Made by a program: the position numbers and the translations under genes. A stretch of 64,000 nucleotides of DNA from Eledone cirrhosa (taxonomy: Eukaryota). Of the stretch, positions 2,916 through 52,628 are shown piece after piece; positions within the stretch are counted from its first letter, which is position 1; every line of letters starts with the position of its first letter. The stretch is taken from positions 164,672,001 to 164,736,000 of the forward strand of contig OZ024743.1 in the NCBI GenBank assembly GCA_964016885.1, written 5' to 3'. The notes under the pieces were generated by a model, which saw only the letters and a program-made list of their open reading frames with translations, did no database searches and was not told the DNA's origin.

Positions 2916-3387
2916 CCAAAATTAAGATAAATTAAATTAAATTAAATCAAATTGAATTAAGGGTGTCATGTCAGATAGACATGCGCCATATCACCCGTAA
3001 AATATGCTCCAAGATTCAAATGAGTAGATCCGAGCATTTTATATCAACTAGAAATTGATTGACATATAATTAAACATATGAAACAATCACAGGGGATAAT
3101 TTGTAAAAGTGTGTAAGCACACATAGCTAGGTAGGTAACTAAAGTTTAGCTAGACCTTCAAAAATAGATACCTTATAATTTGATTAATCTTCCTCGTATA
3201 TATTCCATTAAAGAAATATATTTCACCAATTAATCGATTGTTAAACGGCAGTGGCCAGGTCCTGGATTTTCAACAAGGAAGAGGTCCAGCCATCTGTGTT
3301 TAAGCATCAAGTTCATATCAGCGATTGGCCAGTAACACGTGCTGTATCCACTGAAAATACACACATCATACCAGCTTCGTCCCAGTA
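2916..3387 (+). repeat. Non-coding repeat unit, family C (partial)
   Basis: Homologous to 14984-15440; begins at a TA tract. Confidence 0.75.
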
Positions 3388-5460
3388 GCTGGATGCTTTC
3401 CATTGTGCTACGTTCTAAATCAAACTTGCCCTAGTAGACCCATAAGAGGTAGACCCCCCCCCCACCACCACCACCATAACCTCAATGGCAAAAAAGACTC
3501 CCATGGGAAGGTGGATTGGGTGGACCAAAGCTATACGGACCCCCCAAAACAATAATCAGGTAAGAAAAATGGTCGCGCATGCAATAGGGGCTAGTATCAA
3601 AACTATCCTCAAGGGCCACATATTTAAGTTCAACGAGAAGATCTACACCCAAAATGAAAGAGCAGCCATTGGCGTCAGCATAGCTGGTGATGTTGCCAAC
3701 CTTTTCATGGTATGGTGGGAAAGCAGACTTAAAGATATCCTTAATGAGAGCTCCATAGACCTCATCATGTACTCTCGTTATGAAGACGATATCAATATAG
3801 TTATAAGAACATCCCCACTAGAGAGCACTAACAAGTTTGATTTAGAACGTAGCACAATCGAAAGCATCCAGCAGATAGCTAATTCCATACACCAGAGTAT
3901 AACTGTAACTATCGACTTCCCTTCCAAACACCCTAACAATAGACTACCTGTATTAGACACAGAACTCTGGATTAACACTATAGACGAGAGAGCCTAAATT
4001 CTCCACTCACACTATGCTAAACCCATGGCCTCCAAATACCTGATACTCAAAAACTCAGCAATGTCCAGTAGTGCTAAGTTTAATATTCTGATCGTAGATT
4101 TGGTACGAGTGATGAAGAATGTGTCCCGCACGTGCGACCCAACAGAAATGGAAAGACACATCCAACACTTCATCAACCGCATGCAGTTCTCTGGCTACAA
4201 CCAAAGAGACAGAGTCAGAGTATACGAAGGAGCCATGGAGAAGTATAAGACCCTCATAGAACTGGACATGAAAGGAATTTGCCCATTATACAGGAGAAAA
4301 TCATGGAATAGCTTAGATAGGGCTAAACATAAGATAGGGAAAGCCACCTCATGGTACGACAACCAGAGATACCAAAGTGTCATGTTTGTGGACGCTACCC
4401 CTGGAGGGAAATTAGCTAACCAGTGTAGAAAGGCCCTGAGAAAGACCCACTTAAAGATTAAGGTGGTAGAAAAGCCAGGAACCACCATAAAATCCCTGAT
4501 CAGCAAAGCCTACCCTTTTAAGAAAACCCACTGTACTAATAGGAAATGTATCATATGTAAGGTAAACCCCCGGATAAACTGTAAAACTAGAAACGTAGTC
4601 TATAGCATAAAATGTACAGAGGGTACTTGCAGAAACATGACAACAACATACATAGGCGAGACAGCTCGTAGCATAGGTGAAAGGATAGACCAACACTGGG
4701 GGGAACTAAAAGGACGAAAAAACGGGTCAGTACTATACGAACATGCCAGACAACAACACGACGGTAACATAGACAACATAGAAATTAGAATAATATCTAA
4801 ACATAGAAATGACCCAGCAGATAGGCAAATCAGAGAGGCCAGTGAAATAGAACTTAGAAGGCCAAGACTGAACAGAAAGAATGAATGGAATAACAACAAC
4901 ACCCAAACAAACAACACTGACCTAAGGGAAGTATAAATAAGTAAATAAAATAAATAAATAAATAAATACATACACAAGCACAATAACAACAAACACATAA
5001 ACACACATTAGTCACCCAATCACGAACACACCAAACAAAACACTATACACACACGCAAACGCATGCGCAAAGAAGACAAAATAAAATAAACAAACAAGCA
5101 AATAAATAAATAAAAATATAGACAGACTGAATAAAAATAGCGTAGCCATACAATTCAACAGGAGGAAACAATAGCACCACTGACGATGTTGTAGATGTGC
5201 AACGAAAGATTTATGATAAACTATATATATGTGTTGTGTCTATATTGTATCTGTATTATTTTTTACCGTCGGTCAGTCAATGGCAACATTGATGACCGAG
5301 TATATTAGATTACCGATATAAAAGACACAGAAGCGAAAACCAACCAAACAGTAAGTGTGTTCTGTTATTAATTCTGGCAATATTACACAAATATGACCCT
5401 CCCCAAGTATAACAATATTTGTTTCGACACACGATTTCATATAAAAAACCTCGCAAAACT
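3388..5460 (+). mobile_element. 5'-truncated PLE, family P1 (RT C-half, GIY-YIG, 3' UTR)
   Basis: ORFs 3485-3997 and 4025-4936 match 44654-47014 (YVDD mutated to YEDD, one stop). 3388-3428 is an inverted piece of 3831-3871. Confidence 0.92.
5176..5215 (+). ncRNA. Minimal hammerhead-like motif of P1 3' UTR (also 42702-42740+, 47283-47321+, 41000-41036-, 59252-59290-)
   Basis: CUGACGA-U-GUUG(C/U)A-GAUG-UGCAAC-GAAA; stems I and III are weak. Confidence 0.5.
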
Positions 5461-5477
5461 ATATATATATTATATAT

Positions 5478-5600
5478 AGAGTTATAAACTCAAATAGTCT
5501 TTACAATTAAATAGCTCAAAGAAAGGAATATTTCTGAGCCGTGTAATACAAATGAATATATGTATACTTGTATCAGTGTTTATCCCTAACATATACTCAT
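5478..5600 (+). repeat. Fragment of non-coding unit family E
   Basis: GAGTTATAAACTC..CAATTAAATAGCTCAAAG..TGAGCCGTG matches the reverse complement of 51385-51460. Confidence 0.65.
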
Positions 5601-5754: not shown

Positions 5755-5975
5755 TATATCGTATACCTTCCTGCCAGATGATTGAACGTCTGAAAGTATA
5801 TACTCTCCTTATGCATATTAACGGCTGAGCAGTATGTATATATATATACATACGACTATATATACATACTACTGTACGTCTGTATACATATATGTATACG
5901 TACATACATACTTACATTTAAGTATCAGCCGTACTAAGAGTGAGAAATGAAATTTCGTTTCATTCTTTTCCATTT
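5755..5975 (-). repeat. Internally deleted copy of non-coding unit family A
   Basis: 5830-5975 is the reverse complement of the unit start at 28734 and 13620; 5758-5832 matches the unit interior in forward orientation. Confidence 0.75.
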
Positions 5976-6608
5976 ATATATATATATATACAAACATAAA
6001 TTATCGAGAATCGCATTTCGGCCCACGAAATAACGAAAATCAACCTCCGAGATGTGTGGCAAGTGCTCAATGATTCAGATGAACCAGAGCTATAACAAAC
6101 GTTAAAGGCCAAACACACTGAAACGATGGTTAAACAGTCATTCGCATAACCCCAAAAAACGATCAAGTAATTCGGGTATTGAAAATTTACCCGGACCCCT
6201 GGAAGGTTGGTAAAATCCAGTATTTGGGTTTCTGCGGCTCCTAAATCAAGTACTGTCCGCCTACATAAATAATGTTAAGCTTCTGGTAAGATGATTGAAC
6301 AAGGAAGCCACTTTTTCAACAGGTTTTAGTTCAATGTTAATACAAGGACCGACTATTGCTGCCCCCACGTGGGGATCGGCAAGGGAGGCAACCTATATAT
6401 CAGGCGAATGAATTCAGTTGTGTATATTTTTGCAAGAATGCAAAAACATCACAAATCGAATAGAGTTCTCAACAGAAGGGTTAAAAATAACAAACTATTC
6501 ATATATATATGATATATATATATATATATGATATATAAATATATATATATATATATACATATGGTATATTTATATATGATATATATATATTATATATATA
6601 TATATATA

Positions 6609-8209: not shown

Positions 8210-8533
8210 TATATATATATCATATATATAAATATATCATATATATATATATCATATATATATATATCATACATATATATATATGATATATATATATATG
8301 ATATATATATCATATATATATATATATGATATATATATGTTATATATATATGATATATATATATATATGATCCTCCATCACTTTACCACTTCTCCTTAGA
8401 GCTATCAATTTCGCTAAAACACTCACAGTGGTTAAGGATTTCGAAGTTGATGTCATCCTCAATGCCCGAAAGTCGGTGATTAATTTCGACGACTCTATTT
8501 GGATTAAAAAATCCAATAGTACCCCCATTCGAC

Positions 8534-9733
8534 GTGAGTATGGGCGCCAGTGATTCTGCGGAGGTTACTGATCTTATCGGCTTTATCCTTCTTTTCTCTA
8601 TCAAGGACGAATTCCCCAACGCGGGCGGTTGTTTGTACGGTGACGATGGTCTTTTGACCATGACTAAGTGCGGACCTCGTGCTTGCGACAGGTTCAGAAA
8701 AGAACTCACAGCCTTCTTTAAAGGCTCCAACCTCTCTATACAGGTTGAGGCCAATCTCTCGGTCGTTAATTACCTCGACGTTACCCTCAATTTATTGAAT
8801 GGGTTGTATTACCTGTATAGAAAGCCGAATGATACGCTTAATTACATAAGTAAGCATTCCAACCATCCTGCCAGCATAACCAAGAACCTGGTAAGAAACG
8901 TTTCGTTGAGGCTTTCCCGTCTTTCCACCAACGAGCGTATTTTCAACGACCATTCCACTTATTACAATGAAGCTCTTGCTCGAAGTGGATTTGTCGATAA
9001 GGTAGCATATACAGAGTACGAAAATAGACCTAGAAGAAATAGATCCCGTCGCATTTGTTGGTATAACCCACCATATAATATGGAGGTGACCACACCATTA
9101 GCTAAGATCTTTCTTTCCCTTATTACGAAGCATTTTCCCCCTACACATAAATATAGTAAAATTTTTAATAGAAATACTATTAAAATTTCTTACTCTACGA
9201 CTCCTAACCTTGCACATAACATCACAGCTTCAAATTTAGCTAAACTACCTAGCCCTAGGAACACGTGCATCCCTGTAGTTAGTACTAACTGTAATTGTAG
9301 GAATCGGGTTGATTGCCCCCTATCCGGGAAATGCCTCTCTAGTAACATTGTCTACAAATGTAAGGTTGTAACACCCACGTCCCGTAGGGCCTACATAGGG
9401 TTAACCGCCAATAGATTCAAGCAGCGTCTTTACATGCATACTCATCATTCTTTTCGTTACCCTCTAAGAAGGAATATGACGTCACTTTCAGCTTATATCT
9501 GGAGTCTAAAAGACAACCACACCCAATATAAGTTACACTGGGAGATCCTAGCAAGGGCTAGATCGTATAACGGAAATAAAAGACCATGTGACCTCCGCGC
9601 CGCTGAGGCCCTGGAAATACTCTACGCCACAGACCACATCTTAAACAAAAAATCTGAGGCAATTTCGGTTTGTAAACATAAATTGCACAAAACTTTCCTG
9701 TATTACAGCCCCACGTTATACCCTAACGGATAG
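8534..9733 (+). pseudogene. PLE RT C-half plus GIY-YIG endonuclease (5'-truncated open frame)
   Basis: MGA.DSAEV.DL.G, LYGDDGL (RT catalytic), YLDVTL, SNHP, CNCR..CPL.GKC, IVYKC..YIGLT. Confidence 0.9.
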
Positions 9734-10663
9734 TACGATTTATACGTGGATATTTTACGTCTTGATGTGGGAGCTAAGTATGTTTTGTTTATACCATTAC
9801 TTATTTGCATAGGTAAGTATATATTACCCGTATGTTTTGTGAAGGTACGTATCCTTCTCGTACGTATATTTGATTGTTTATGTTATGGCGTATAATTTTA
9901 TATATTCTGGTACATTGGTTTGGCTATGTGTATACGGGAGTTTTGCGTCTGTGTGAGTATGCAGGTTCGTACGTATGTAGGGTGTGTGTATATGTGTACT
10001 TCATGTTTTGATTTACTTACGTCTCCGAACATTCATGTATTTACATGTAGGTATGTGTGTGCGCTTGTTATATACGTATTTATTTATTTATATACGTTTA
10101 TATAATTATTTATTTATTTGTATACACGCATACACACACATATTTATATGTGCGTGGTTTTGTATACCGATGGTAAGTGTTCTGCGTATGCTTGTGTATG
10201 TACGTATTTGTTTGCGTGTATGTATTTATTTATTTCTATTACTTCTGTATCGTATTTATTTACTTTGTTCTTAACTCTGTAGCGGAGATTCATTCGGTCT
10301 CCTACTTAGAATTTTAGGCTACGACTTCTGCTATACCATTTACGTGGTTTTGTCTTTGCGTGCTATTGTTCTCCACACTCCACATATGACGTATTATCTT
10401 CGTTTTTTTTCGTTCATTGCCAGAGAACGTCTCTATGAACCACCTAAGAGAACATTAGTCTACGACCTCTTTTATACCATAAATGTGGTTCTGTCTTTGC
10501 GCGTAATTGTTTTTCACCGCTCCTATTAATGACGTATTATATTCGTTTTTTCCCGTTCTTTGCCAGGGAACGTCACCACGAACCAAAGTATCGTCTTCCT
10601 GTCTTCCTCCGGTTGCAACGTTTTTTTAAATACCCACTTCTGCGTATACAGATTGACTTTGTT

Positions 10664-10714
10664 AGTTTCAGAAGATCCCGTTAAGGGTGAAAGCAGCGAT
10701 TCTTTGCTTAAACT
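10664..10714 (+). ncRNA. Hammerhead-like motif with CAGAAGA core (copy 2)
   Basis: Same sequence and fold as 2559-2609. Confidence 0.65.
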
Positions 10715-11240
10715 TTAATCTGTTATTTTAATAAATATTTGCTCTACGGTTCTTATATATTTGATATATATTTATCCTTATCGAGCCCTCTTTGGATTTT
10801 AGTCTTCAAATTTATTACTATTACTATTTGGCTCCCTCGGTTGAGCACTCTACTGACTTATATTCATCATGCAGAAACAACATCTGAATATTTCTACAAA
10901 GAACATACCCGTACCAAGCAGGAAAACATATCTAAAACTCCTGATACAGAAAACAGACGCGTTCATTAAAAGGTTGCGTTGGCGTGCCTTTTATTTCGAT
11001 AATCCGCGAAAAGCAGACAACAAACAGGATAAATTTGGATTTAAAACCTATAATAACCCCCGTGTAACCCAGCATTACTACCCTTCGAAAATGATGTCTT
11101 GGAACTCATTCGGAGTATCAAATTTCGGAATAAGAGCAGTTCCTTCCAGCAAGACCTGAAGTATAGAATTCGTTCTATTAAGGATTCTAATGCCGTGCGA
11201 GCCCTCTTTGGATTTTAGTCTTCAAATTTATTATTATTAC

Positions 11241-13585: not shown

Positions 13586-13619
<34 letters not shown>

Positions 13620-13623
<4 letters not shown>

Positions 13624-14912
13624 GGAAAAAATTAAACGAAATTTCATTTCCCACACTTAGTACGGCTGTTACTTAAATATAAGTATGTACAGGTACATAC
13701 ATATATGTATACAGACGTACAGTAGTATGTATATATATATACATACATGCACACATATATATATGTACGTATTGATTCACCGAACATTTATTATAATGCT
13801 CGGTGTGTTTGTAAACAAACATCCCGTATTAAACCGTAGTGTCTAGCAACCATCGTTGCTCGTTTGTTCAACACTGACAAAGGAACGCTGTACTAGTTTC
13901 AAGCTTATTAGCTATCGTCAGCAACGTATACCTTCCTGCCAGATTGTTGAACGTACATACTTACCTTATGCATATTAACGCTGAGTAGCCCAATTTGCAT
14001 ATCGAGTGGGTTAATCGGCCGGGTGCACCGAAAACGATAAACGGAAAAAATGAAACGAAATTTCATTTCCTACTCTTAGTACGGCTGTTACTTAAATATA
14101 AGTATGTACACGTACATACATATATGTATACAGACGTACAGTAGTATGTATATATATATACATATATGCACACATATATATATGTACGTATGGATTCACC
14201 GAACATTTATTATAATGCTCGGTGCGTTTGTAAACAAACATCTTGTATTAAGCCGTAGTGTCTAGCAACCACCGTTGTTCGTTTGTTCAACACTGACAAA
14301 GGAACGCTGTACTAGTTTCAAGCTTATTAGCTATCGTCAGCAACGTATACTTTCCTGCCAGATTGTTGAACGTATATACTTACCTTATGCATATTAACGG
14401 CTGAGTAGCCCAATTAGCATATCGAGTGGGTTGATCGGCCGGGTGCACCGAAAACGATAAACGGAAAAAATGAATTTCGTTTCATTATCGTTTTAGGTAC
14501 ACCCGGCCGATTAACTCACTCGATATGCAAATTGGGCTACTCAGCCGTTAATATGCATAAGGAAAGTATATACTTTCGGACGTTCAACCATCTGGCAGAA
14601 AGGTATACGTTGCTGACGATAGCTAACAAGCTTGAAACTAGTACAGCGTTCCTTTGTCAGTGTTGAACAAACGAGCAACGGTGGTTGCTAGACACTACGG
14701 CTTAATACGGGATGTTTGTTTACAAACACACCGAGCATTATAATAAATGTTTGGTGAATCCATACGTACATATATATGTGTGCATGTATGTATATATACA
14801 TACATACTACTGTACGTCTGTATACATATATGTATGTACGTATACATACTTATATTTAAGTAAGAGCCGTACTAAGAGTGGGAAATGAAATTTCTTTTCA
14901 TTTTTTCCGTTT
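13620..14912. repeat. Family A non-coding unit array: two ~420-bp tandem copies plus one inverted copy
   Basis: Unit starts near 13620, 14039 and 14459; 14475-14912 is a reverse-complement unit; TA tracts on both sides. Confidence 0.9.
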
Positions 14913-14983
14913 ATATATGATAGATATATATATATACATATATATATATATATGATATGTAAATATATATGATATATATATAT

Positions 14984-16086
14984 CCAAAATTAAATCAAGG
15001 GTTGTCATGTCTGAGAGACATGCGCTATATCTACTGTAGAATAAGCTCAAAGATTCCAATGAATAGATCCGAGCGTTTCATATCAACTAGAAATAGATTT
15101 ACATATATATATATAAAATAAATACATGGAACAATCACAGGGAATAATTTGTAAAGAATGTAAGCACACATAGCTAGGTAGGTAACTAATTAAAGTTTAA
15201 CTAGAACTTCAAATATAGATACGTTTTAAAATGATTAATCTCCTTTGTATATATTTCTTTAAGTAAGAAATATATTTCACCAATTAATCAGTAGATCACA
15301 GCAGTCAAATCCTGGATGGCCACAAAAGGAGAAGAAATAACTATCTGCGTTTACAAAGCAAATACAAATCTGTGAATGACTCGAACCACGTGTTGCATTT
15401 TTCAAAAAATACTCACAACGCACAGCGTCATCCCAGTGGCGTGAATAGGATTATCGCCAGCTAGAAATAGCAGCCGAGTCCATTTAACTGAATTAGCTCA
15501 ACAATCAATGGGCCGTATATATAACCAAAATTAAATTAAGGGTTGTCATGATAACCGTATATATATATCCAAAGGGGCAGTATATATATCCCAAATTAAA
15601 TTAAGGGTTGTCATGACAACCCTTAATTTAATTTTGGATATATATACGGCCCCTTGAATGTTGAGCTAATTCAGTTGAATGGACTCAGCTGCTATTTCTA
15701 GCTGTCGGTAATCCTATTCACGCCACTGGGATGACGCTGTGCGATGTGTGTATTTTTTGAAAAATGCAACACGAGGTTCGAGTCATTCACAGATTTGTAT
15801 TTGCTTTGTAAACGCAGATAGTTATTTCTTCTCCTTTTGTGACCATCCAGGATTTGACTGCTGTGATCTACTGATTAATTGGTGAAATATATTTCTTACT
15901 TAAAGAAATATATACAAAGGAGATTAATCATTTTAAAAGGTATCTATATTTGAAGTTCTAGTTAAACTTTAATTACCTACCTACCTAGCTATGTGTGCTT
16001 ACATTCTTTACAAATTATTCCCTGAGATTGTTTCATGTGTTTATTTTATATATATATATATGTGTCAATCTACTTCTAGTTGATAT
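14984..16086. repeat. Family C non-coding unit (~541 bp) with short tandem restarts and fold-back inversion
   Basis: CCAAAATTAAAT.AAGGGTTGTCATG at 14984, 15525 and about 15590; perfect palindrome centred on TCATGA 15611-15616; a further inverted fragment at 16575-17135. Confidence 0.85.
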
Positions 16087-16406
16087 ATTGATATATATAT
16101 TTAATACAATAACAGAGATAGTTTAAAGCTAAACTCTGACTGGTAACCATCTCACTCAACAAACATTAGGTTATATTAAAATATAAACCCAATTTAAGTG
16201 TTTGGGGTGCTAACAATATGTATAATGTGGAAAAACCAGTTGTATTATTTTATGAGATGTAATTAAAGTTAAAGTATATATATTTTTATATATATTTATG
16301 TTTATATATATATATTTATATATATTTATTTATATTTATATTTTTATATATATTTATGTTTATATATATATATTTTTATATATATTTATGTTTATATATT
16401 TATATA

Positions 16407-16470
<64 letters not shown>

Positions 16471-16691
16471 TAGAAGGGGTATTTAATTTGTTTGAAAGTC
16501 CAACAAATATAAATGTTTGTAACTGATTTAGAGCACTTAACAGTTTACTGGAGTAAATATTCAATGATATTAAATATATTTGAAGTTCTAGTTAAACTTT
16601 AATTAGTTACCTACCTAGCTATGTGTGCTTACATTCTTTACAAATTATGTCCTGTGATTGTTTCATGTATTTATCTTATATATATATATGT

Positions 16692-17100
16692 GGCTCTAAG
16701 CCAGCAGAGTCATAACGACCAGGCTGCTCCTTGACAGTGTAATTAGGGGCTCTAACCCTAGTGCTGTTAGATCGACTCTCCATATTTCTTTTCAATGGCT
16801 GACAATACCTTACCGGCGCCACTCGAATAAGGTAGTTATTTAACCCATAAATGGAGCCCTAACAGGTACTACCACCCCGGGCCAGGGCAGACCTGGGAGT
16901 CATGACAACTAAGGGGTAACTCCATATTCCCCACATCTCCTGAACTCCCGAACTGGAAGAGGAAGACCAAGGTTAACATATGTTGATGCCCTAAGGACAG
17001 ACACTGGTCTGTTGGAGACGCAGGACATGGCAGCGATAATGAGGGACAGAGACCGCTGGAGAGAACTCGTCCATGGATCTCGGGAATTTTACCCGCCTTA
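16692..17100 (+). mobile_element. Chimeric insertion ending in the RTE LINE 3' terminus
   Basis: 16952-17100 matches 28276-28425. It interrupts a family C fragment at its internal TA tract (16575-16690 resumes at about 17110). Confidence 0.75.
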
Positions 17101-17137
17101 GATAGATATATATGTCAATCTATTTCTAGTTGATATG

Positions 17138-17220
<83 letters not shown>

Positions 17221-17227
<7 letters not shown>

Positions 17228-18210
17228 GAGTTATTAACTCATAGAGATACCCTGCAATTAATATGCTCAAAGTATAAATACTGAGCAATATAATATTAAT
17301 CCCACCGAGGTTGACTTTGCCTTTCATCCTTACGGGGTCGATAGAATAAAGTACCAGTAATGCACTGGATAATTGCTGGCCTTGTGCCTAAAGTAGAAAC
17401 AATTATAATATTAATATGTGTAGAAGTAAACACAGTAAACCCATGTCTAAAATTACGAGGGTAGATTACACCACAAATGTTATATATAATTCAACCTGAA
17501 TCATATGGGATGTTACAAGATTTCTTATAAGATTTCTCATACATACCATATCAATAACCATTTCATCTCCCGGACAGACTAAAGATTTAATCTGTTTCAC
17601 CCTGAATAAATTGTGGTTGTAACAAGTAATCCGTAGGCATTTCGTCAGCGAGAGATAAGATTAAATGATAGACCACACCTATAACGAGAAACTCACTAAA
17701 GTTTACACCTCGTCCGTTGAAAGTCATATGCGGTGCGAGTGATTATGCTAGAAATAATAGCCTATTTACACTCATTGTTATAAGCTCAACAGAGAAGGAG
17801 CCGAAATACAAATAAAATATAGAGTTATTAACTCATATAGATACCTTGCAATTAAAAAGCTCAAAGTATAAATACTGAGCATTATAATATTAATCCCACC
17901 GAGGTTGACTTTGCCTTTCATCCTTATGGGTCGATAAAATAAAGTACCAGTAATGCACTGGGTAATTGCTGGCCTTGTGCCTCAAGTAGAAACAATTATA
18001 ATATTAATGAGTAGAAGTAAACACAGTAAATCCCGTGTCTAAAATTACGAGGGTAGATTACACCACAAATGTTATATATAATTTATAAGAAATCTTGTAA
18101 CATCCCATATGATTCAGGTTAAATTATATATAACTTTTGTGGTGTAATCTACTCTCGTAATTTTAGACACGAGGTTTACTGTGTTTACTTCTACACATAT
18201 TAATATTATA
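17221..18210. repeat. Family D non-coding unit (~595 bp), 1.4 tandem copies plus short inversion, carrying a SINE fragment
   Basis: AAATATAGAGTTATTAACTC at 17221 and about 17815; SINE piece at 17291-17402 and 17895-17993; 18085-18210 is inverted. Confidence 0.85.
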
Positions 18211-18424
18211 TATATATATATAGTATTAAGGATACTATTTATGGTTATGTATATACTAAAATCTTTTATAGTTATATATATTTTATACCCTAAATAGTGA
18301 AAGACAGTAATTTATTACTATCTTATTACCAGTAAGATAAATAGCTCAATGTAACAACATCAGTTGTTTTACAGAGCAGTTATATAGAAATTACATGAAT
18401 CAAAGTTCAGTTTAAATCATTTAT

Positions 18425-18473
18425 TTGCTTACAATTGTTTCTTCCAAACCGAGTTTTGGCGTCTTCGGAGCAA
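18425..18473 (-). ncRNA. Hammerhead-like motif with CCGAAGA core
   Basis: Reverse complement of 21012-21060. Confidence 0.65.
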
Positions 18474-21011
18474 TTATTTAGTGATTTTTTACATACTTGA
18501 CCTCCTTTTCAACACAAGAGACAGTTAGAAACATATGTATATATTGACCCACAGTGGGTTGACATCCATTATAATAATATAGCATGGCAATTTACATACA
18601 AAGATTACAGTCATATTAAAGGACAAAATTAAAGTTAAAATTAAAATTAAAATAAAAAATTGGCAGTTTAAGAAGATAAAGCAAGAGGAAAGTTTGGAGT
18701 AGCCAGTGTATGCAACAGTCTCACGTGAGGCATGCACGCGTGTCCTATTTATACAAGATTATAGTGCGGCAGATTGTTACATGTAAAACAAGCAGTCAAA
18801 GCAGGCAATCAAGAGCATCATGGGGGATGTACTGGTAAAGCATTTTTCACACACACCTGTACGATATAGAAGCCCGTGTGTAGAGAAACACCAAAAATAT
18901 CAAAAATATTACAAATGAGAAGCAAAACAGCACCACTGTCTTCGCACACACCACCACTCTCACAACCCAGGAAACGCAATTTATAGACTACATGTCCATC
19001 ACACAATCCACGATGATTCAACATTGGGTGCCTGGTGAACCATGTTAGAAATCACAGCTTGTCGTTCTCTATTCGATTCTATAGATCAGGTTGTTTTTGT
19101 TGTGAGAGTTAACATCGTATTATATTCCGGAAGTGTGTGTGTGATTAAGGGGAGTTAATGCGTAAGGGGAGGTAACTAGCTGATTTTTATAGTTAAATTT
19201 ATTATCCTAAAGTACATTAATGGTGTTTCAAATGAGTTCCTATCATATAAGGTTATAAACAATTTCTAAATTTAAGTATCTTATCTATAAATTACAGTGT
19301 AGTCTATCAAGAAGTACTAAAGGTGTTCATATTAGGATGATTACCTTCTATCATAGAGTGCCACAACCGAACATTCTACATGAAGAGTCAGATCTCCAAA
19401 TCAATGATCTTTGTAAGTGTAGTCCACCCGCAGAACCTGGCAGGGTCTTATTAGAATCACTTCTATATATGATTCCTGGTAAGCTCTGGGTCATTGCATG
19501 TCTGATTGCATGACAAAGTTAAATATCACTAGGGTAGTCCAGAGATCAATTCTCACCTACAAAGACACTAATCTGACCATCAAGCCATACATGTATTTAT
19601 AACTCATACATCACCTGTACATAATTCATTGCACTCAGCATATAGATTATATAGCTCTTTTATGTTAATAAATTAATTACTTAATCTTCCATTTATCCAA
19701 TGACGGCACTCCATACACAGGACAATGTTAGCACAACCAATTCCGTGCTTAAAGTTTACATTAATTATATATTGGTGTAATGTAGTCCAAGTAATTGAAG
19801 GCCAATATACCAAAAGTAGAAGTTCATGGGGATATCTCTAGGGTAAAATGTACTAGGAGGATGTCACTATTTGCGTTAAAGTGGATTAATGGGTGTGGAG
19901 AAGGTGTGCCCGTGATGTTTGTTGCTAGATGTGGTGACGGGTTCAAGTCTGACATTGTTATATATTGGGTTTAAAGTTTTGGAAGGAGTGTCGGAAGCGG
20001 TGTTGGCAAGACGCGAACACTTCTGATTTTTTATTAAGGAGGTTATGGTTTGAGAAGATGATAGTATGGGTCTCTAGTAGAGAGAGGTTACAAAATTTAT
20101 TAGGTGGTTTGTACGATGTTGCATTACCTATCACTTCCCATTTAAGTGTATATGGTTTATTTTTAGTTTTTAGATAGTGTATGTAGCTAGATAGTGAAAT
20201 GGAGTTGGCTAGACTGTGTTTTTTGAAAGAGTGGAGGTGCGAATTGTATCTGGTTTTGAAGCAGTTAGAAGTAGAGCCGATATTGGTTTCAGAAGAGTTG
20301 CTAGTTGTGACTGTGCATGAGTATATGATATCCTTGATTAACTCTCACAACAAAAACAACCTGCTCTATAGAATCGAATAGACAACGACAAGCTGTGATT
20401 TCTAACATGGTTCACCAGGCACCCAATGTTGAATCATCGTGGATTGTGTGATGGACATGTAGTCTATAAATTGCGTTTCCTGGATTGTGAGAGTGGTGGT
20501 GTGTACGAGGACAGTGGTGCTGTTTTGCTTCTCATTTGTAATATTTTTGATATTTTTGGTGTTTCTCTACACACGGGCTTCTATATCGTACAGGTGTGTG
20601 TGAAAAATGCTTTACCAGTACATCCCCCATGATGCTCTTGATTACCTGCTTTGACTGCTTGTTTTACATGTAACAATCTGCCGCACTATAATCTTGTATA
20701 AATAGGACACGCGTGCATGCCTCACGTGAGACTGTTGCATACACTGGCTACTCCAAACTTTCCTCTTGCTTTATCTTCTTAAACTGCCAATTTTTTATTT
20801 TAATTTTAATTTTAATTTTAATTTTAATTTTAATTTTAATTTTAATTTTAACTTTAATTTTGTCCTTTAATATGACTAATCTTTGTATGTAAATTGCCAT
20901 GCTATATTATTATAATGGATGTCAACCCACTGTGGGTCAATATATACATATGTTTCTATATGTCTCTTGTGTTGAAAAGGAGGTCAAATATGTAAAAAAA
21001 TTACTAAATAA

Positions 21012-21060
21012 TTGCTCCGAAGACGCCAAAACTCGGTTTGGAAGAAACAATTGTAAGCAA
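21012..21060 (+). ncRNA. Hammerhead-like motif with U4C core (CCGAAGA)
   Basis: UUGCU/AGCAA stem I, CCAAA/UUUGG stem II, GAAA, palindromic A-CAAUUG-U, UA site. Confidence 0.65.
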
Positions 21061-21226
21061 ATAAATGATTTAAACTGAACTTTGATTCATGTAATTTCTA
21101 TATATATATATATATATATATTATTATATATGATATATATATTACTCTTTTACACTTTTACTCTTTTAGCTGTTCCAGCCATCTGGCTGAGGCCATGCTG
21201 GGGCACCGCCCTTGTTGCTACACATT

Positions 21227-26184: not shown

Positions 26185-28425
26185 AACACAGAACCCTACA
26201 ACTATTTCAGTACACTGGGTAGTGACCACCGGCTTGTTATCAGTGAGGTCCGGGTGAGCTTAAGAAAGAGCAAGGCTCAGCCCCGGAGAGCAATCTATGA
26301 CTGGGGAGCTTCCAAGGAAGATGATAAGCTACAGGAGAGATTCACAGTAGAAATGAGGAACAGGTTCAGTGCACTGTGTGGAGAAACAGAGGAGAGAGAG
26401 ATTGGATAGACTGAGGAGAGTGTGACGAGGAGGTACGGATACTTCACCAATGCAGTGGCGGAAGCAAGTGAGACCCTGGTACCGAGGAGAAAGAACAAAA
26501 GGAAGCACGTCAGCTCTGCAGACCCAAAAGTATGTGCAGCCAGAGAACACCTGAAAGCTGCCAAGGACCAATTCTATGCTGATCCTACGGAGGAGAAGAT
26601 GGAGACTGTGGAGGTGACGAGGGAAGAACTCTGTACCGCTTACACTGAGGCCAGAGAGGGGGCACTGATAGAGAAGATCAGACGTGTGGAGAGAGCGGTT
26701 GACAGGTCTGGATGTAAGGAGAGCTGGAAGATCATCAACGAGATCATAGGGAGGAAGAGAAGGTGTTCGAGTCAGATCCAGGGAACGGGGCCCGAGGATA
26801 GGAAGAGGAAATGGATAGACCATTTTAGGACCCTACTAGGAGAGCCGCCCTCCACAGCCCAGAACACTGGGGAGATCAGGCGACTGTTTGAAGAACTGGA
26901 TATTGAGACAGAGCCCTTCACCAGAGAGGAGCTTCAGAGAGCCAAGAAGAAGATCAAGGAGGCAAGGCTCATGGAGAAGATGGAGTGGCATCAGAGGTGA
27001 TGAAGAGGTGTGATTTTGATGATATCAAGCTGGGGTTCTTTAACCAGGCACTGGAGAAAGGAGTTGCCCGAATCAGTGGAGGATCAGTAACATCGTCCCA
27101 GTGCCAAAGAAGGGAGATCTCTCTAACACCAACAACTACAGGGGGATCTCACTGACGTCACTTGTGGCAAAGACACTCAACAGGATGATTCTTAACAGGA
27201 TCCAGCCTAAGATGGAGAAGAAGCTCAGGGACAACCAGAACGGCTTCAGAGAAGGAAGATCAACCACCAGTCACATCCTGATGCTGAGGAGGATATTAGA
27301 GGGAGCTAGAGCAAAGTACCTTCCTGCAGTCTTGGTTTTCATTGACTTTAGGAAGGCCTTTGATTCCGTGGACCGTCACTGCCTGATGAAGATCTTACAG
27401 GCTTATGGAATCCCCAAGAAGATAGTGGACCTGATATCACTGCTCTACACCAACACCAAAGCCCGAGTCATTACACCTGATGCGATGACAGAGTTCTTTG
27501 AGATACTGGCTGGAGTGCTCCAGGGAGATACATTGGCTCCCTACCTTTTTATCATCGTGGTGGACTATTGCATGTGCCTTGCACTAGAGAAACACCAGGA
27601 CTCTGGCTTTACTGTAGCACCGGCTCAGAGCAGGAGAGTTAAGGCGAAAAGATATCGGATGCTGAATTTGCCGACGACATAGTTTTGGTGACAAATACAG
27701 TGAAGGAAGCAGAGGATTTGATGCAGGAGATTGAGACTGTGTTGATGAGTGTGGGGCTGAGAATGAATGAGATTAAGACAAAATATCTGGTAGAGAATGT
27801 TGAGAAGCCAGAAGAGATTATTAATGTAGGCGGGGAGCCGCTAGAATTGGTTGAGGACTTCCTGTATTTGGGACCAAAGATTGGGAATACGGAAGATGAT
27901 GTGGTTGAGAGGAAGAGCAAGGCCTGGGCGGCGTGCCACAGCTTGAGATCGGTGTGGAAGTCGGACCTTTGTAAAGACCGGAAAATCCGCCTCTTCATTG
28001 CTGTAGTGGAGTCTGTGCTGCTGTACGGGTCTGAGACTTGGACAGTGGCCAAGAAACTCACTCAGATGGTGGATGGGTGCTACACAAGAATGCTAAGGAT
28101 GGCTCTGAACATTAATCAGTATACACTGAGGATGAAAAACTCAGAGCTTTATGGGAGCCTCCTAAAAGTCAGCTCAAAAGTGACACAGAGGAGACTGAGG
28201 TTAGCTGGACATGCTCACCGGCATTCAGAGTTGACATTGCACTCAGTGCTCCTGTGTGAGCCCCTACATGGACACACTGGAAGAGAAAGACCAAGGTTAA
28301 CGTATGTTTATGCCCTAAGGACAGACACTGGTCTGTTGGAGACGCAGGAAATGGCAGCGATAATGAGAGACAGAGACCGCTGGAGAGAACTCGTCCATGG
28401 ATCTCGGAAATTTTACCCGCCCTAA
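26185..28425 (+). mobile_element. 5'-truncated RTE-clade LINE (RT), frameshifted
   Basis: [79 protein letters not shown]; ends in a TA tract. Confidence 0.92.
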
Positions 28426-28426
28426 A

Positions 28427-29840
<1,414 letters not shown>

Positions 29841-29907
29841 ATATATATATATATATATATTAATGAAAAAGAACAAAGGAACTATTATGACATTATAACA
29901 AGTTTAT

Positions 29908-29954
29908 TGCCGACAGCCGTTTCGTCCGACCATATGGGGGGACTTTTCAAGGCA
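29908..29954 (-). ncRNA. Hammerhead ribozyme, U3-A8 variant (inverted copy)
   Basis: Near reverse complement of 32412-32458. Confidence 0.75.
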
Positions 29955-32411
29955 TATAACAGGTGATTGCAAGTTCATTATTTACATCAACGTTTCACTC
30001 AAGATTAGCAGTTTGAAATTGTGGTATACATTAGCAGCTCCGCTTGTATATTTGGGGTCTATATTCTAAGGGGGCTCTTTTATATTAGTTGTCGGAGTTG
30101 TAAAAGGGATGGGTTATGGGGAGTTAAGGGAATTTGAAAGGGGCCTAAGAGTCAGGGGTTGAAGGTTAAAAATTAGATAATTTATAATTTACGCATTAAA
30201 AGTAAAAGACTTGGGATCTCGTAGAAGCACCTTAAAAATCCCTCAATAAGTGCATAAAGCTTATAAGCCCCAATAAACCTAACAAACCAGAAGATATTAA
30301 GAGACTAAAAAAAATAATAAAATAAAAATATAAAGTTTCCTAAAAAATTCCTTCGAGAGAAAAAAATTTTTTCGAAAGAAAAAAATTTTTTCTTCCCCAG
30401 AGATCACGTTAAAAAATTTTTTTCAGAAAATTTACGAAGTTTTGATAATCCCTACTAAGTTGAAAGAAACTAATCAATTAAAGGTTAATTCAAAAAGCCT
30501 TCAAAAAATCCCTCAGAAAAGGCCCCTTTAATATTTTTAATAAGAACCTCTCCCGAGAGACCCTTCGAAGAATTAAAATTTTAGAGAGCCTTTAAGGATA
30601 TATATAAACGAATTGAGGAAAATTATAAATTAAAAGTTAAAAATTACGGGATTTGGGATATCCGGGGAATTTTTGAAGGGCTGCTTCAACAGATACAACT
30701 TAGGTATAATAGATAAAATAATTTAAGTAATTTAATTAGGGAGCAATTCAAAGAGCTTATCAAGTTGGGCAAGATTAAAGAAAATGATAAGTAAGAAAAT
30801 ACATAAGCAAAAAGACAATAATTATAAAATGTATTTTTAAGAAGGTATAAGGTAGCTTCAGTAATCTAATAATGTACTATCAAAAAATTATTATAAAATT
30901 CTTAATACAGGATTAACAAATACATAATAATATATTCCTGCCTAATTAACAAATAATCAATAAACAATTAACAGTCAAGCAAAATTAGCTCAGGGATATC
31001 CCGCGCTCGGATACTTTACACACATACAGCAACACATAGGATTAACAAAGACATAATGGTATATTCCTGCCTAATTAACAAACAATCAATAAACAATTGA
31101 TAGTCAAGAAAATGTACTCAGGGATATCCCACGCACGGATACTTTACACACATACAGCAAGATGAACAATACAGGTGACCTTGTGGGTGCGATATCCATT
31201 GTGCGTATGTAGTCATCTGCATAGCTCCAGGCACAGTTGGTCTGTTTTTAAATGTTCAGAGTTCACGAATCAACTGGGATTCACTATCAGCTGTGTGGAC
31301 TCTCTGGGAGATGTACCTGTGGATCAAATAGCTAGTGATTGCTGGGTGTGGTCCGTTCGATCTTTTAGTTTCGGGGATTGCACGCGTTTGCGATAGATCA
31401 GCCTGCCGGTTCTAAATCCAAGGTCTCGCTGCATAGGATGTATTGGTTTACATGCTATATTGGTAAAAAAAACCAGTGTGGATTTGACTGGGATGGTATA
31501 TTGCGTCTCTCGCTAATATCTCCTCCTCTCACGAACTCCAAGCACACACGCGACTGGTCAAATGCGAAGGGCTGTCCCCTCTTTGTTTGTTGTAGGGGTC
31601 GGTTCCAGCTTAGATGGTGGTCGTGTTATCCATATTCCGTCAGCCATGCATATTCAAAACAGATCAGGGTATATATTTGCGGGTATGGTCCGGCGTCTAC
31701 GCTATCCAAAGGGTCTCTCTTGTGGTATTTTCAAGTTCGCATGTCATCTCCCGGTTAAGACTGCGCATGCTTCGGTGAATCTCGTGCATGGAATCTTGGG
31801 GTATCATATTACACGGGGTGACTAGCAGAAAATATATATTCCATGCTATCGCGCACGCGCTAGCATGTGGCTACGACCGTGTCCAGTCTCGGGTAGTAGC
31901 AGACAGCAGGTAGACCAGCTAGACACACCCCTGAACGTGATCTCTGGGGAAGAAAACATTTTTTATTTCGAAAAAATGTTTTTTCTCTCGAAGGAATTTT
32001 TTAGGAAACTTTATATTTTTTTAGGAAACTTTATATTTTTATTTTTTTAATTTTTTTAAGTCTCTTAATATCTTCTGGTTTGTTAGGTTTATTGGGGCTT
32101 ATAAGCTTTATACACTTATTGAGGGATTTTTTAAGGTGCTTCTACGAGATCCCAAGTCTTTTACTTTTAATGCGTAAATTATAAATTATCTAATTTTTAA
32201 CCTTCAATCCCTGACTCTTAGGCCCCTTTCAAATTCTCTTAACTCCCCATAACCCATCCCTTTTACAACTCGGACAACTAATATAAAAGAGCCCCCTTAG
32301 AATATAGACCCCAAATATACAAGCGGAGCTGCTGATGTATACCACAATTTCAAACTGCTAATCTTGAGTGAAACGTTGATGTAAATAATGAACTTACAAT
32401 CACCTGTTATA

Positions 32412-32458
32412 TGCCTTGAAAAGTCCCACCATATGGTCGGACGAAACGGCTGTCGGCA
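32412..32458 (+). ncRNA. Hammerhead ribozyme, U3-A8 variant
   Basis: UGCC/GGCA stem I, UUGAAAA, GUCC..ACC-AUAU-GGU..GGAC stem II, GAAA, A-CGGCUG-U, GUC site. Confidence 0.8.
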
Positions 32459-32609
32459 ATAAACTTGTTATAATGTCATAATAGTTCCTTTGTTCTTTTT
32501 CATTAATAGTTCTGCTCTGCTTATACGCATAGAGCTTAACTAGCTACCGTCGCATATTTGGTAGGTCAGGCGTGATCATCGCGATTCACATACGACCTAC
32601 CATACATCT

Positions 32610-32684
<75 letters not shown>

Positions 32685-40727: not shown

Positions 40728-42947
40728 GCGGCGATGAATTAGTTTAGCGAGGTTTTTTATATGAAATCGTGTGTCGAAACAAATATTGTTATACTTGGGG
40801 AGGGTCAAATTTGTGTAATATTGCCAGAATTAATAACAGAACACACTCACTGTTTGGTTGGTTTTCGCTTCTCGCTGTCTTTTATATCTGCGATCTAACT
40901 TACTCGGTCCCAAATGTTGCCATTGACTGACCGACGGTCAAAAATAATACAGATACAATATAGACACAAACACATATATATAGTTTACATAATTTACATA
41001 AATCTTTCGTTGCACATCTGCAACATCGTCAGTGGGGTTATATTTTTCCCTCCTGTTGTGTTGTATGTCTACGCCATTTTTTATTCAGTCTGTCTATATA
41101 TTTATTTATTTATTTGCTTGTTTGTTTATTTTATTTTGTCTTCTTTACGCATGCGTTTGCGTGTGTGTATAGTGTTATGTTTGCTGTGTGACTAGTGTGT
41201 ATAGTGTTGTGTCTGCTGGGTGACTAGTGTGTGTTTATGTGCTTGTTGTTATTGTGCTCATGTATGTATTTATTTAACTTATTTTATTTTATTTAATTTA
41301 CTTATTTATACTTCTCTTAGGTCAGTGTTGTTTGTTTGGGTGTTGTTGTTGTTCCACTCATTCTTTCTGTTTAGCTTTGGTCTTCTAATTTCTATTGGAC
41401 ACATTCTTCATCACTCGTACCAACCACCCTAACAATAGACTACCTGTATTAGACACAGAACTCTGGTTTAACACTATAGACGAGAGAGCCCAAATTCTCC
41501 ACTCACACTATGCTAAACCCATGGCCTCCAAATACCTGATACTCAAAAACTCAGCAATGTCCAGTAGTGCTAAGTTTAATATTCTGATCGCAGATTTGGT
41601 ACGAGTGATGAAGAATGTGTCCAGCATGTGCGACCCAACAGAAATGGAAAGACACATCCAACACTTCATCAACCGCATGCAGTTCTCTGGCTACAACCAA
41701 AGAGACAGAGTCAGAGTATATGAAGGAGCCATGGAAAAGTATAAGACCCTCATAGAACTGGACATGAAAGGAATTTGCCCATTATACAGGAGCAAATCAT
41801 GGAATAGCTTAGATAGAGCTAGACATAAGATAGGGAAGGCCACATCATGGTACGACAACCAGAGATATCAGAGTGTCATGTTTGTGGACGCCACCCCTGG
41901 AGGGAAATTAGCCAACCAGTGTAGAAAGGCCCTGAGAAAGACCCACTTAAAAATAAAGGTGGTAGAAAAGCCAGGAACCACGATAAAATCCCTGATCAGT
42001 AAAACCTACCCTTTTAAGAAAACCCACTGTACCAATAGGAAATGTATCATATGTAAGGTGAACCCCCGGATAAACTGTAAAACTAGAAACGTAGTCTATA
42101 GCATAAGATGTACAGAGGGTACTTGCAGGAACATGACAACAACATACATAGGTGAGACAGCTCGTAGCATAGGTGAAAGGATAGACCAACACTGGGGGGA
42201 ACTAAAAGGACGAAAAAACGGGTCAGTACTATACGAACATGCTAGACAACAACATGACGGTAACATAGACAACATAGAAATTAGAATAATATCTAAACAT
42301 AGGAATGACCCAGCAGATAGGCAAATCAGAGAGGCCAGTGAAATAGAAATTAGAAGACCAAAGCTAAACAGAAAGAATGAGTGGAACAACAACAACACCC
42401 AAACAAACAACACTGACCTAAGAGAAGTATAAATAAGTAAATAAAATTAAATAAAATAAGATAAATAAATACATACACAAGCACAATAACAACAAGCACA
42501 TAAACACACACTAGTCACCCAGCAGACACAACACTATACACACTAGTCACACAGCAAACATAACACTATACACACACGCAAACGCATGCGCAAAGAAGAC
42601 AAAATAAAATAAACAAACAAGCAAATAAATAAATAAATATATAGACAGACTGAATAAAAAATGGCGTAGACATACAACACAACAGGAGGAAAAAATATAA
42701 CACCACTGACGATGTTGCAGATGTGCAACGAAAGATTTATGTAAATTATGTAAACTATATATATGTGTTTGTGTCTATATTGTATCTGTATTATTTTTGA
42801 CCGTCAGTCAGTCAATGGCAACATTGAGGACCGAGTAAGTTAGATCGCAGATATAAAAGACAGCGAGAAGCGAAAACCAACCAAACAGTGAGTGTGTTCT
42901 GTTATTAATTCTGGCAATATTACACAAATATGACCCTCCCCAAGTAT

Positions 42948-42952
<5 letters not shown>
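40728..42952 (+). mobile_element. PLE family P1: inverted 3' end plus 5'-truncated forward copy
   Basis: 40728-41395 is the reverse complement of the element 3' end; 41396-41421 is the reverse complement of 41597-41622; forward ORF 41425-42432. Confidence 0.93.
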
Positions 42953-42983
<31 letters not shown>

Positions 42984-42988
<5 letters not shown>

Positions 42989-43976
42989 CAAATAACGAAA
43001 CGAAATTAAATTTCGTTTCGTTTGTAACTCACTTTTGTATGACTGACGCTTAAACAATTAAGTTAGAAGTGTACATCCACATATGTATACTGAAATACTA
43101 GTATGCATATAAATACACACACGTATACATATGTAGATGTACCGAGTTTTTAACTGGACACTTTACTGTGAGTGTTCAGCTAGTCTGTATGTAAACACAC
43201 AGACAAACCGGTTTTTAGAGTCATACTGGTTTTCGAGGAAACACCTTTCCTCTATTCTCCAGAGGGCCAGACAGGAATATTGGACTAGTTTCGATGTTGT
43301 TACATCTCATCAGCAATATTTACCCATCCTCCGGCCCCTCTAGAGAATCGTAAAAGCACATATCGTTATATGCTTTTTCTATGAAAATTAGTAGTGGGCA
43401 GACTAATTTGCATAGAGCGTGAGTACGTACCGGTTCAGCGGAAGCGATAAAAACAAATAACGAAACGAAATTAAATTTCGTTTCGTTTGTAACTCACTTT
43501 TGTATGACTGACGCTTAAACAATTAAGTTAGAAGTGTACATCCACATATGTATACTGAAATACTAGTATGCATATAAATACACACACGTATACATATGTA
43601 GATGTACCGAGTTTTTAACTGGACACTTTACTGTGAGTGTTCAGCTAGTCTGTATGTAAACACACAGACAAACCGGTTTGTGCTTTTACGATTCTCTAGA
43701 GGGGCCGGAGGATGGGTAAATATTGCTGATGAGATGTAACAACATCGAAACTAGTCCAATACTCCTGTCTGGCCCTCTGGAGAATAGAGGAAAGGTGTTT
43801 CCTCGAAAACCAGTATGACTCTAAAAACCGGTTTGTCTGTGTGTTTACATACAGACTAGCTGAACACTCACAGTAAAGTGTCCAGTTAAAAACTCGGTAC
43901 ATCTACATATGTATACGTGTGTGTATTTATATGCATACTAGTATTTCAGTATACATATGTGGATGTACACTTCTAA

Positions 43977-43980
<4 letters not shown>
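42984..43980. repeat. Family B non-coding unit (~465 bp), 1.5 tandem copies plus inversion
   Basis: AAAACAAATAACGAAACGAAATT at about 42985 and 43450; 43678-43980 is inverted; TA flanks. Confidence 0.9.
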
Positions 43981-51295: not shown

Positions 51296-51948
51296 TTATT
51301 TGAATTAGTTTATTTCATTCTAGCTAACTTCGTCTTTTACAATACAAACACTTACGTGTTTATCATATATTAATTTATATTAACTTGTATTTCACGGCTC
51401 AGAAATGCTTCTTTCTTTGAGCTAATTAATTGTAAATGACTGTTTGAGTTTAAAACTCTAAATATAATATAATATTACGGCTCCTTCGGTAGAGCTAATT
51501 TTAATCCCATATAAACGGCTGTTATTTCTAGCGCCATGAATATGAGATAGCTAGTGAGCTGGAAAAACCGAGTGCAAAACCTCGTGCGTTTTGTGCTCGT
51601 GAACCAGACCTTCAAAATTTTTTCGAGGTGAAGTAACCTAATTTTTCTGGGTACCTGTTGATAAGCACAGAGAATTGATTATTTCATTTTTTATACTATC
51701 GTTTGCGAAACTTGTTTGGATTTTGAAGTTCAGATTGATCTGCGGAAAAGGTTTGGATTTTGAAATTTAAATTTGTCCAGGTACCATTTAAATTTGCCAA
51801 TATGAGTTTGGGTCTATTGATTTATTATTTTAAATCGATACAGGCAAACTCTATTTATTTGAATTAGTTTATTTCATTCTAGCTAACTTCGTCTTTTACA
51901 ATACAAACACTTACGTGTTTATCATATATTAATTTATATTAACTTGTA
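51296..51948 (-). repeat. Family E non-coding unit (560 bp) plus partial tandem copy
   Basis: TATTTGAATTAGTTTATTTCATTCTAGC recurs with a 560-bp period; shares motifs with families C and D on the minus strand. Confidence 0.8.
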
Positions 51949-52628
51949 TATATATATATATATTGGAAAATCGGACAAAGGAAACAATGTTTTCGTCGGT
52001 CTTTCCAGTTGCTAGTACTATCTATCGGTCGCAACTCCAGGTAGAAGGAGCAACGTGAAATAAAGTGTCTTGCTCAAGTACATAATGAAACATTTGGAGA
52101 CATCAAAATGAAAATAAACTTATCTTAATGAAGTCTTCATAACAATCACTATATATAGTAATAATAATAAATTTGAAGACTAAAATCCAAAGAGGGCTTG
52201 ATAAGGATAAATATATATCAAATATATAAGAACCGTAGAGCAAATATTTATTTATATAACAGATTAAAGTTTAAGCAATGAATCGCTGCTTTCACCCTTA
52301 ACGGGATCTTCTGAAACTAAAAAAATCAATCTGTAAACGCAGAAGGAAATATTTTGAAAAACATTGCAACCGAAGGAAGACAGGAAGACGATACTTTGGT
52401 TCGTGGAAACGTTCCCTGGCAAAGAACGGAAAAAAACGAAGATAATACGTCATTATTTGGAGCGGTGAGAACAATTACACGCAAAGACAAAACTATGTTT
52501 ATAGGATAAATGAAGTCGTAGACTAATATTCTATTAGGTGGTTCGTGGAGACGTTCCCTGGCAATGAACGGAGAAAAACGAAGATAATACGATGAGAACA
52601 ATTACGCGCAAAGACAAAACCATATATA

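Follow-up and report, generated by a model that had tools for sequence, protein, structure and literature searches.

The window, by which we mean the whole stretch of 64,000 nucleotides that was analysed, contains non-coding repeat units of three families (C, D and E) and coding PLEs, one of which neighbours the C and D units. The features are given below with their coordinates and strand.

2916..3389, minus strand: diverged C-type unit with a U3-A8 core (3273-3267) and compensated helix I.
5461..5560, minus strand: E-type tail fragment with the short hairpin and hairpin 2.
8368..11240, plus strand: second coding PLE with a Hydra-type linker, a hammerhead-like motif at 10669, hairpin 2 near 10741-10786, an end site near 10827 and hairpin 1 at 10830-10847, followed by the 5' start of the next ORF.
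14984..15526, RNA strand minus: probable family C retrozyme unit, 543 bp, bordering on (TA)n at 14984 with its outer end (site A).
15044..15074, minus strand: C hairpin 2, GCUC…GAGCU in RNA sense, with site B about 5 nt upstream (RNA sense), near 15080.
15240..15331, minus strand: putative hammerhead of the first C copy, core GUGGCCA (15323-15317), G3-C8 with A6G, AUA triplet.
15460..15475, minus strand: C 16-bp motif, GGCU-NN-UAUUUCUAGC.
15495..15515, minus strand: C hairpin 1, with a C·A mismatch in family C.
15617..16086, plus strand: inverted C copy ending at site B, putative hammerhead 15831-15922, core GUGACCA (G3-C8).
16575..17133, plus strand: orphan C fragment ending at site B, its internal TA run split by an insert (16693-17106).
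17221..17815, minus strand: probable family D retrozyme unit, long form, 595 bp.
17298..17403, plus strand: captured SINE-like repeat fragment in D.
17565..17656, minus strand: putative D hammerhead, helix I AUCUCUCG/CGGGAGAU, core CUGACGA (17648-17642), GAAA, 10-bp helix III, GUC (17575-17573).
17747..17803, minus strand: D hairpin 1 (17783-17803) and 16-bp motif (17747-17762).
17816..18210, no strand given: partial second D unit, hairpin 2 (17858-17880) and an inverted piece ending in (TA)n.
18222..20337, minus strand: 5'-truncated coding PLE, predicted Hydra clade, with a GIY-YIG fragment ORF (19958-20344), a 3' UTR of about 1.6 kb and a tail ending at site A (18222).
18343..18377, minus strand: hairpin 2 of this coding PLE, with site B near 18381.
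18425..18473, minus strand: hammerhead-like variant of this coding PLE, core CCGAAGA (18468-18462), palindromic minimal helix III, GUA.
20338..21104, plus strand: inverted 3' piece of the 18222-20337 PLE, ending at site B.
51296..51949, RNA strand plus: probable family E retrozyme, 1.17 units, putative hammerhead 51650-51785, core UUGAUAA (U3-A8), GUC.
51397-51423 and 51478-51496, in the plus-strand unit 51296..51949: E hairpins, with the E motif at 51517-51532.

The C, D and E units of the window measure 543, 595 and 560 bp, and their pairwise global identity of 52-54%, compared to about 50% for shuffled E, indicates that only motifs are common to them, as the original prediction had described for units of about 540-595 bp. 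The ordered motifs were recovered, with GCTAGAAATA-NN-AGCC at 15460, 17747, 51532 (minus strand) and 15702 (minus strand), the short hairpins GAGTT/AACTC and CATGTC/GACATG in their places, and AGCTC-loop-G(A/G)GC hairpins at 15495, 15044, 17783, 17858, 51496 (minus), 51423 (minus), 5513 and 18343; the last of these, which had been read as a further non-coding unit hairpin (18338-18380), lies in the coding PLE. Searching the 3.0-Gb genome gave 2,567 first-look candidates for C, 2,067 for D and 3,377 for E, of which 40 per family were scored, and the composite pattern GCTAGAAATA-NN-AGCC-N14-30-AGCTC had 2,233 genome matches (1204+1029; reversed control 0), with many subfamilies of periods of about 450-600 bp among the loci sampled. 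The tandem and inverted architecture is real, with 1.0-2.0 units running colinearly in most of the 90 loci mapped (30 best full-length hits per family, pieces near the main hit being counted) and an adjacent inverted piece in 44/90. No unit contained an ORF of at least 150 aa, and the units are, like non-LTR retrozymes, both tandem and non-coding. The SINE-like fragment in the D unit of the window (about 105-115 bp from 17298) is missing in most D copies; this repeat also occurs upstream of U6 at another locus (L252), in a longer copy that has a tRNA-like head. The insert in the orphan C fragment matches, in its right part, the final (3') portion of the LINE ORF at 27643-28425.

The units had been described as hammerhead-less; on the reverse of the strand originally read, all three have a type I hammerhead topology. 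A strict descriptor (without G3-C8, C4 or an offset helix II) matched 64/135 units; in the window it found D (at 17648) and E (at 51658). With a relaxed finder, run with controls, the topology was present in 110 of 132 distinct units (those from loci L001-L140 with the exact motif present and 330 nt downstream) compared to 13 on the opposite strand and 8 after shuffling, about 5 of the 110 placements being AT-rich false ones. By family, it was found in 18/21 C units (17 with G3-C8), 22/24 D units (20 with C3-G8) and 28/29 E units (24 with U3-A8), with an intact core in 15, 19 and 24 units respectively, and the core 3-8 pair was Watson-Crick in 101/110 (U-A 43, C-G 40, G-C 18). Among 16 representatives, one of which is misaligned, 93.7% of cells pair (74.8% shuffled, 27-46% slid), and two-sided changes affect 12 of the 13 pairs, among them every one of the 8 in helix I; as the rows were hand-picked after the structure search, the comparison leans towards structure. 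The minimum-energy folds contain helices I and III (z -2.7 for D, -3.9 for E and -3.6 for C). Rfam returned no hammerhead at gathering score in the window, nor at E<=10 on 14900-21200 and 51250-52000, the only matches being miRNA-like inverted-repeat ones, and this miss is likely explained by the long inserts of the helix II (32-90 nt) and helix III (19-65 nt) regions. Fits to the consensus of HDV-like, twister, pistol and hairpin ribozymes were considered by eye and dropped.

In family C, G3-C8 occurs together with an AUA triplet and a U·U at the helix II base, and its hammerheads may cut poorly; judging by its A6G, that of the first C copy in the window is likely inactive. Among published hammerheads, those of PLEs include forms with a U3-A8 core, with an extra base between A9 and helix II and, in some PLEs, with a large helix III (PMC4209133); an axolotl retrozyme has a U·U at the helix II base (PMC7229834), and the C3G/G8C double mutant gave partial rescue (PMC11167929). 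A natural G3-C8 hammerhead family was not found in the literature covered, large hammerhead surveys lying outside its scope, and a high-copy family such as C was not found described among the PLE hammerhead variants in the available portion of PMC4209133.

In target-primed retroelements the fixed end of an insertion is the 3' side of the RNA. Across the 90 loci, C, D and E pieces showed one fixed class of ends, which for 120 of the 134 pieces lay at one of two sites, A or B (C 45/48, D 35/39, E 40/47), and the opposite ends scattered; the RNA of C, D and E is therefore the reverse of the orientation originally assumed. These counts are biased, as best full-length hits were selected and the C query started at site A and the E query at site B, and the site not used as the query start was still frequent (15 ends at site B for C, 20 at site A for E). 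At both sites the sequence either continues into the hairpin or enters (TA)n at an AT 3-6 nt before GCTC. A pile-up of RNA-5' ends at the predicted hammerhead cut was also looked for among the C, D and E pieces, and ends within 5 nt of it were seen in 2/134, suggesting that cleaved linear monomers are not the template; cDNA runs past the predicted cut, and the template would be an uncut multimer or a ligated circle.

The hairpin pattern by itself is not clearly above chance in the window (18 occurrences, shuffle mean 7.6, maximum 20). The order of hammerhead, site B, hairpin 2, site A and hairpin 1 is the same in C, D and E and in the coding PLE. Hairpin 1 has a stem of at least 4 bp in 20/23 representatives, and E subfamilies have exactly the same hairpin 1 loops as two coding families (L101 as L183, and L088 as 10830 in the window). 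Covariation, which had been proposed as a check, was found for helix I of the hammerhead and is lacking within this genome for the hairpin stems, which are nearly invariant with loops of 5 to about 30 nt.

The coding PLE at 18222-21104 has 5,187 candidates in the genome, with intact copies elsewhere and open frames of about 830 aa in many matches; a single ORF of 819-827 aa with an RT and, at its C-terminal end, a GIY-YIG was present in 8/8 copies chosen for long frames. Pfam assigned no family to the EN fragment of the window, and RT and GIY-YIG motifs were compared by eye with published ones. The protein of one copy (L258) has HADKTNN, CNCRANRTC, CNLC and CQH, which correspond to the Hydra DKT, CxCX5C linker, CxxC and CxH, has no CCHH, and reads RWR where the Hydra clade has RWK, and we assign the element to the Hydra clade by its predicted protein, which has all diagnostic motifs except RWK. 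The family has the same two end sites as C, D and E (query 1952-1957 and 2116), its site A ends lie in (TA)n in 19/19, and in full-length copies site B and hairpin 2 follow the 3' UTR, after which about 160 nt lead to site A and hairpin 1, the ATG coming about 20 nt later. At 30 coding PLE 5' ends, hairpin 1 lies about 20 nt before the ATG in 20/30 and hairpin 2 is present in 17/30; most of the remaining ends are truncated or inverted or carry point mutations. Of 39 coding PLE 3' ends, 19 have a hammerhead-like variant about 50 nt before site B, with CCGAAGA as its core; it was missed by stricter descriptors, is not the minimum-energy fold and is less well supported than the hammerheads of C, D and E. 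The second coding PLE family (8368-11240) has the same layout. Other PLE families also sit in (TA)n within the window.

The original prediction had named a match to an autonomous element as counting against it, and such a match was found in part: the hairpins match the tail or 5' leader of autonomous elements and the unit bodies do not. Compared to the coding PLE L183, these bodies gave nothing beyond AT-rich noise, and since they lack homology to the coding PLE examined, the direct parent of C, D and E was not identified.

Hairpins of this kind are also visible by eye in 4/6 of the published Hydra consensi (PMC8557442 supplement). Hydra-1_Ajap has two before the ATG, Hydra-2_Ajap and Hydra-2_Amil each have one after the hammerhead, and Hydra-1_Crog has a GCCC/GGGC version, a two-sided change, before the ATG; none was visible by eye in Hydra-1_Obim, and the Hydra-1_Amil consensus is incomplete. 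The word 'hairpin' has 0 occurrences in the main text of PMC8557442. Three octopus Naiad consensi carry a similar hairpin (GCTCC/GCTTC…GAGCC) before the ORF, so the signal may reach beyond Hydra. By its repeat sequences, the host of the window may be an octopod.

The remaining common element is the 16-bp motif, GGCT-NN-TATTTCTAGC, which lies 14-30 nt after hairpin 1 in the C, D and E units, is strongly conserved across these otherwise unrelated units and is missing from the coding PLE 5' ends (0/30). A related 18-nt pattern has 3,303 matches, including unrelated repeats without hairpins, and most of the 25 loci inspected were an old short repeat or another hairpin-less family. Our best guess is that the motif is a promoter or factor-binding site; it may resemble a MEF2 site. 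As a U6 promoter element it was rejected, with 0/12 U6 loci having it within 500 bp at up to 3 mismatches (10 of the 12 belonging to one array). If read as the remnant of an ORF start (I-S-x-K-N-I-P), its third codon positions are invariant, and its conservation is not at the protein level.

Together, the motifs, covariation, end positions, common hairpins and intact partner ORFs observed here lead us to regard C, D and E as probable retrozymes, non-coding tandems with type I hammerhead motifs and two hairpins common to Hydra PLEs, that would be copied by the Hydra RT-endonuclease. The superfamily envisaged in the original prediction, non-autonomous, PLE-associated and retrozyme-like, holds under this reading, and its alternative that the hairpins dock an RT is supported by the end mapping and by their sharing with coding Hydra PLEs. 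Its other proposal, a new non-hammerhead ribozyme formed by the GCUAGAAAUA motif and the doubled hairpins, came from reading the motifs on the antisense strand, and we now judge it very improbable: the strong conservation of the 16-bp motif across unrelated units and its absence from coding PLE 5' ends would fit such a ribozyme, yet the units already carry a hammerhead, the hairpins are accounted for by the insertion ends and are common to coding PLEs, and the motif occurs without hairpins in unrelated repeats (by the related pattern) with only a 3-bp stem drawable around it. As each unit has a hammerhead, a new ribozyme class is therefore not needed. Helitron-like rolling-circle DNA transposons or satellites, which tandem copies, terminal hairpins and TA targets might suggest, are scarcely conceivable given ends that are fixed on one side and scattered on the other, the inversions, hammerheads that covary, an RT-coding element with identical architecture and arrays of just 1-2 units.

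The hairpins might instead act as DNA, with the endonuclease recognising or resolving sequence-specific sites in the element or in a cDNA intermediate and so fixing both ends. GCTC/GAGC is invariant rather than covarying, the Penelope endonuclease needed tail sequence in plasmid DNA, as recounted in PMC11167929, and the tail has been ascribed to EN-mediated resolution (PMC8557442). We nevertheless think a DNA role unlikely, as stems persist while loops vary so widely in length, as the change in Hydra-1_Crog preserves pairing from both sides, and as the PLE tested in PMC11167929 initiates on RNA at the tail boundaries. Mobilisation by another (TA)n-targeting PLE clade (of Naiad, Neptune or Poseidon type), with the hairpin a general PLE feature, would accord with the Naiad hairpins and with the (TA)n insertions of other PLE families in the window; it appears very unlikely, since Hydra-type families alone have both hairpins aligned with the two ends and carrying identical loops. 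Two short Naiad-derived patterns also gave 0 genome matches, which are weak negatives, the second pattern being very degenerate.

By the criteria that sequence can address, C, D and E belong with the non-LTR retrozymes (PMC7229834; bioRxiv 10.64898/2026.07.22.740005), being non-coding, low-GC tandems with one type I hammerhead per unit that co-occur with PLEs. Their units of about 450-600 bp exceed the 150-450 bp typical of non-LTR retrozymes (PMC7229834) and fall within the 51-972 bp range of bioRxiv 10.64898/2026.07.22.740005. Unlike typical non-LTR retrozymes, they have long helix II and III regions, three forms of the 3-8 pair in one superfamily, dispersed insertions of 1-2 units with inversions, and an identified partner clade and cis signal. 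The coding PLE shares with the published Hydra clade (PMC8557442) the targeting of (TA)n, a hammerhead-like motif close to its 3' end and the occurrence of inversions and partial tandem copies, and differs in being about 4.3 kb, with a 3' UTR of 1.5-1.7 kb, compared to less than 3 kb for published Hydra elements. Poseidon_Ac initiates RT internally in vitro at two sites bounding its tail (PMC11167929), and the C, D and E insertions resemble it in two internal starts bounding an optional tail, AT-rich targets and an uncleaved RNA template, which here are deduced from the genome. The Poseidon_Ac starts are within the ORF, in an AC-rich stem-loop and without homology to the target, and its tail is 30-40 long (PMC11167929). 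The starts proposed here belong to a non-coding leader, where an AU precedes the conserved GCUC/GAGC hairpins; TA microhomology amounts to 2-8 nt and the tail to 80-160 nt.

We infer transcription, cleavage, circles, protein binding and priming of C, D and E from sequence, as follows. A multimeric transcript, or a hammerhead-cut and ligated circle, would be bound by the Hydra protein at either hairpin, and the GIY-YIG domain would nick (TA)n. Reverse transcription would then prime internally at the AU 3-6 nt 5' of the hairpin and run for 1-2 units, and priming by the second target strand, at the other or the same site, would give the inverted piece. The two hairpins would define an optional 'tail', of about 80-97 nt in the retrozymes and about 160 nt in the coding element, with the use of hairpin 1 or hairpin 2 producing insertions with or without it. 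Beyond this, we somewhat favour the view that the GCUC…GAGC pair is a clade-wide docking and priming signal of the Hydra PLE RT, from corals and sea cucumbers to this genome, that makes the 'tail' and is all the licence required by a large superfamily of hitchhiking retrozymes; one of its families would have spread with a flipped G3-C8 core, and all would have an extra 16-bp module, perhaps a promoter, from other repeats.

The ribozyme class itself is known, and what is new here is a concrete cis signal tying retrozymes to a named PLE clade. Within the available literature, PLEs have so far been proposed as retrozyme mobilisers from co-occurrence and pLTR similarity only, and the literature covered, Repbase and Dfam names lying outside the comparison, held no paper describing families of this kind, non-autonomous Hydra elements or the hairpin pair. 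The miss by Rfam and by tight descriptors of hammerheads with long inserts suggests that retrozymes are likely undercounted, and in the C, D and E elements the 3-8 core pair varies as a natural series. A portable hairpin steering RT cargo insertion into (TA)n would be of interest for RNA-templated insertion tools. The question addressed is which autonomous element moves animal retrozymes and by which cis signal, and a named clade with young, intact partner ORFs, two mapped start sites and a small common hairpin make the proposed answer testable with an existing in vitro assay.

Besides the non-coding PLE-associated retrozyme families C, D and E, which combine a predicted type I hammerhead with two GCTC…GAGC hairpins, the window was found to hold the following elements:

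29858-32612: element sharing the design of C, D and E
13618-14946, 28701-29700 and 5758-6001, hammerhead on the minus strand: tandem retrozyme with a unit of 419-444 bp
42982-43980: additional unit with a predicted hammerhead, CUGAUGA…GAAAC-UA-GUC
3427-5461, 40740-42983, 44600-47560 and 59047-60847: several copies of a separate PLE family

The element at 29858-32612 has 550-bp ends that are inverted relative to each other, with a predicted hammerhead of the U3-A8 form (its core 3-8 pair) near 32418-32455. Its end site falls at about 32508, its GCTC…GAGC hairpin occupies 32516-32535, and the stretch between the inverted ends showed no coding ORF. The 419-444 bp retrozyme, arranged in both tandem and inverted copies, is predicted to form a canonical short type I hammerhead on the minus strand (CUGACGA core, GUA) and is without the GCTC hairpins of C, D and E. 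The unit at 42982-43980 has copies with 99-100% identity and is therefore very young. The separate PLE family codes for RT with GIY-YIG at the C terminus, carries a CUGACGA…GAAAG half-core close to its 3' end and also ends in (TA)n. From 6608 onward, a TA tract is followed by an element beginning TACTAGCAGAGGTACCCGGCGTTGCTCGGG, a start that resembles a Helitron-like end.

The 16-bp motif conserved near hairpin 1 of C, D and E units was also, independently of the hairpins, better conserved than any other part in a short repeat that is old and in at least one younger family (loci L191-L215, contig C1 of the searched genome, G000), its conservation across these loci being inflated by their selection with the search pattern itself. 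On contig C19 (31.78-31.84 Mb; L248-L257), at least 30 U6-like genes recur about every 1.8 kb in a tandem array, and in some units a tRNA-like SINE lies about 25 bp upstream, inserted between promoter and gene.

Among the genome matches listed, the probable partner of C, D and E, a coding Hydra-type PLE, is represented by dozens of equal-score copies whose open frames are 832 aa long, a sign of a very recent burst. At L149/L178 (contig C320), a junction of retrozyme E runs directly into the coding PLE's 3' UTR, as if the RT had switched template between the retrozyme and its partner PLE.
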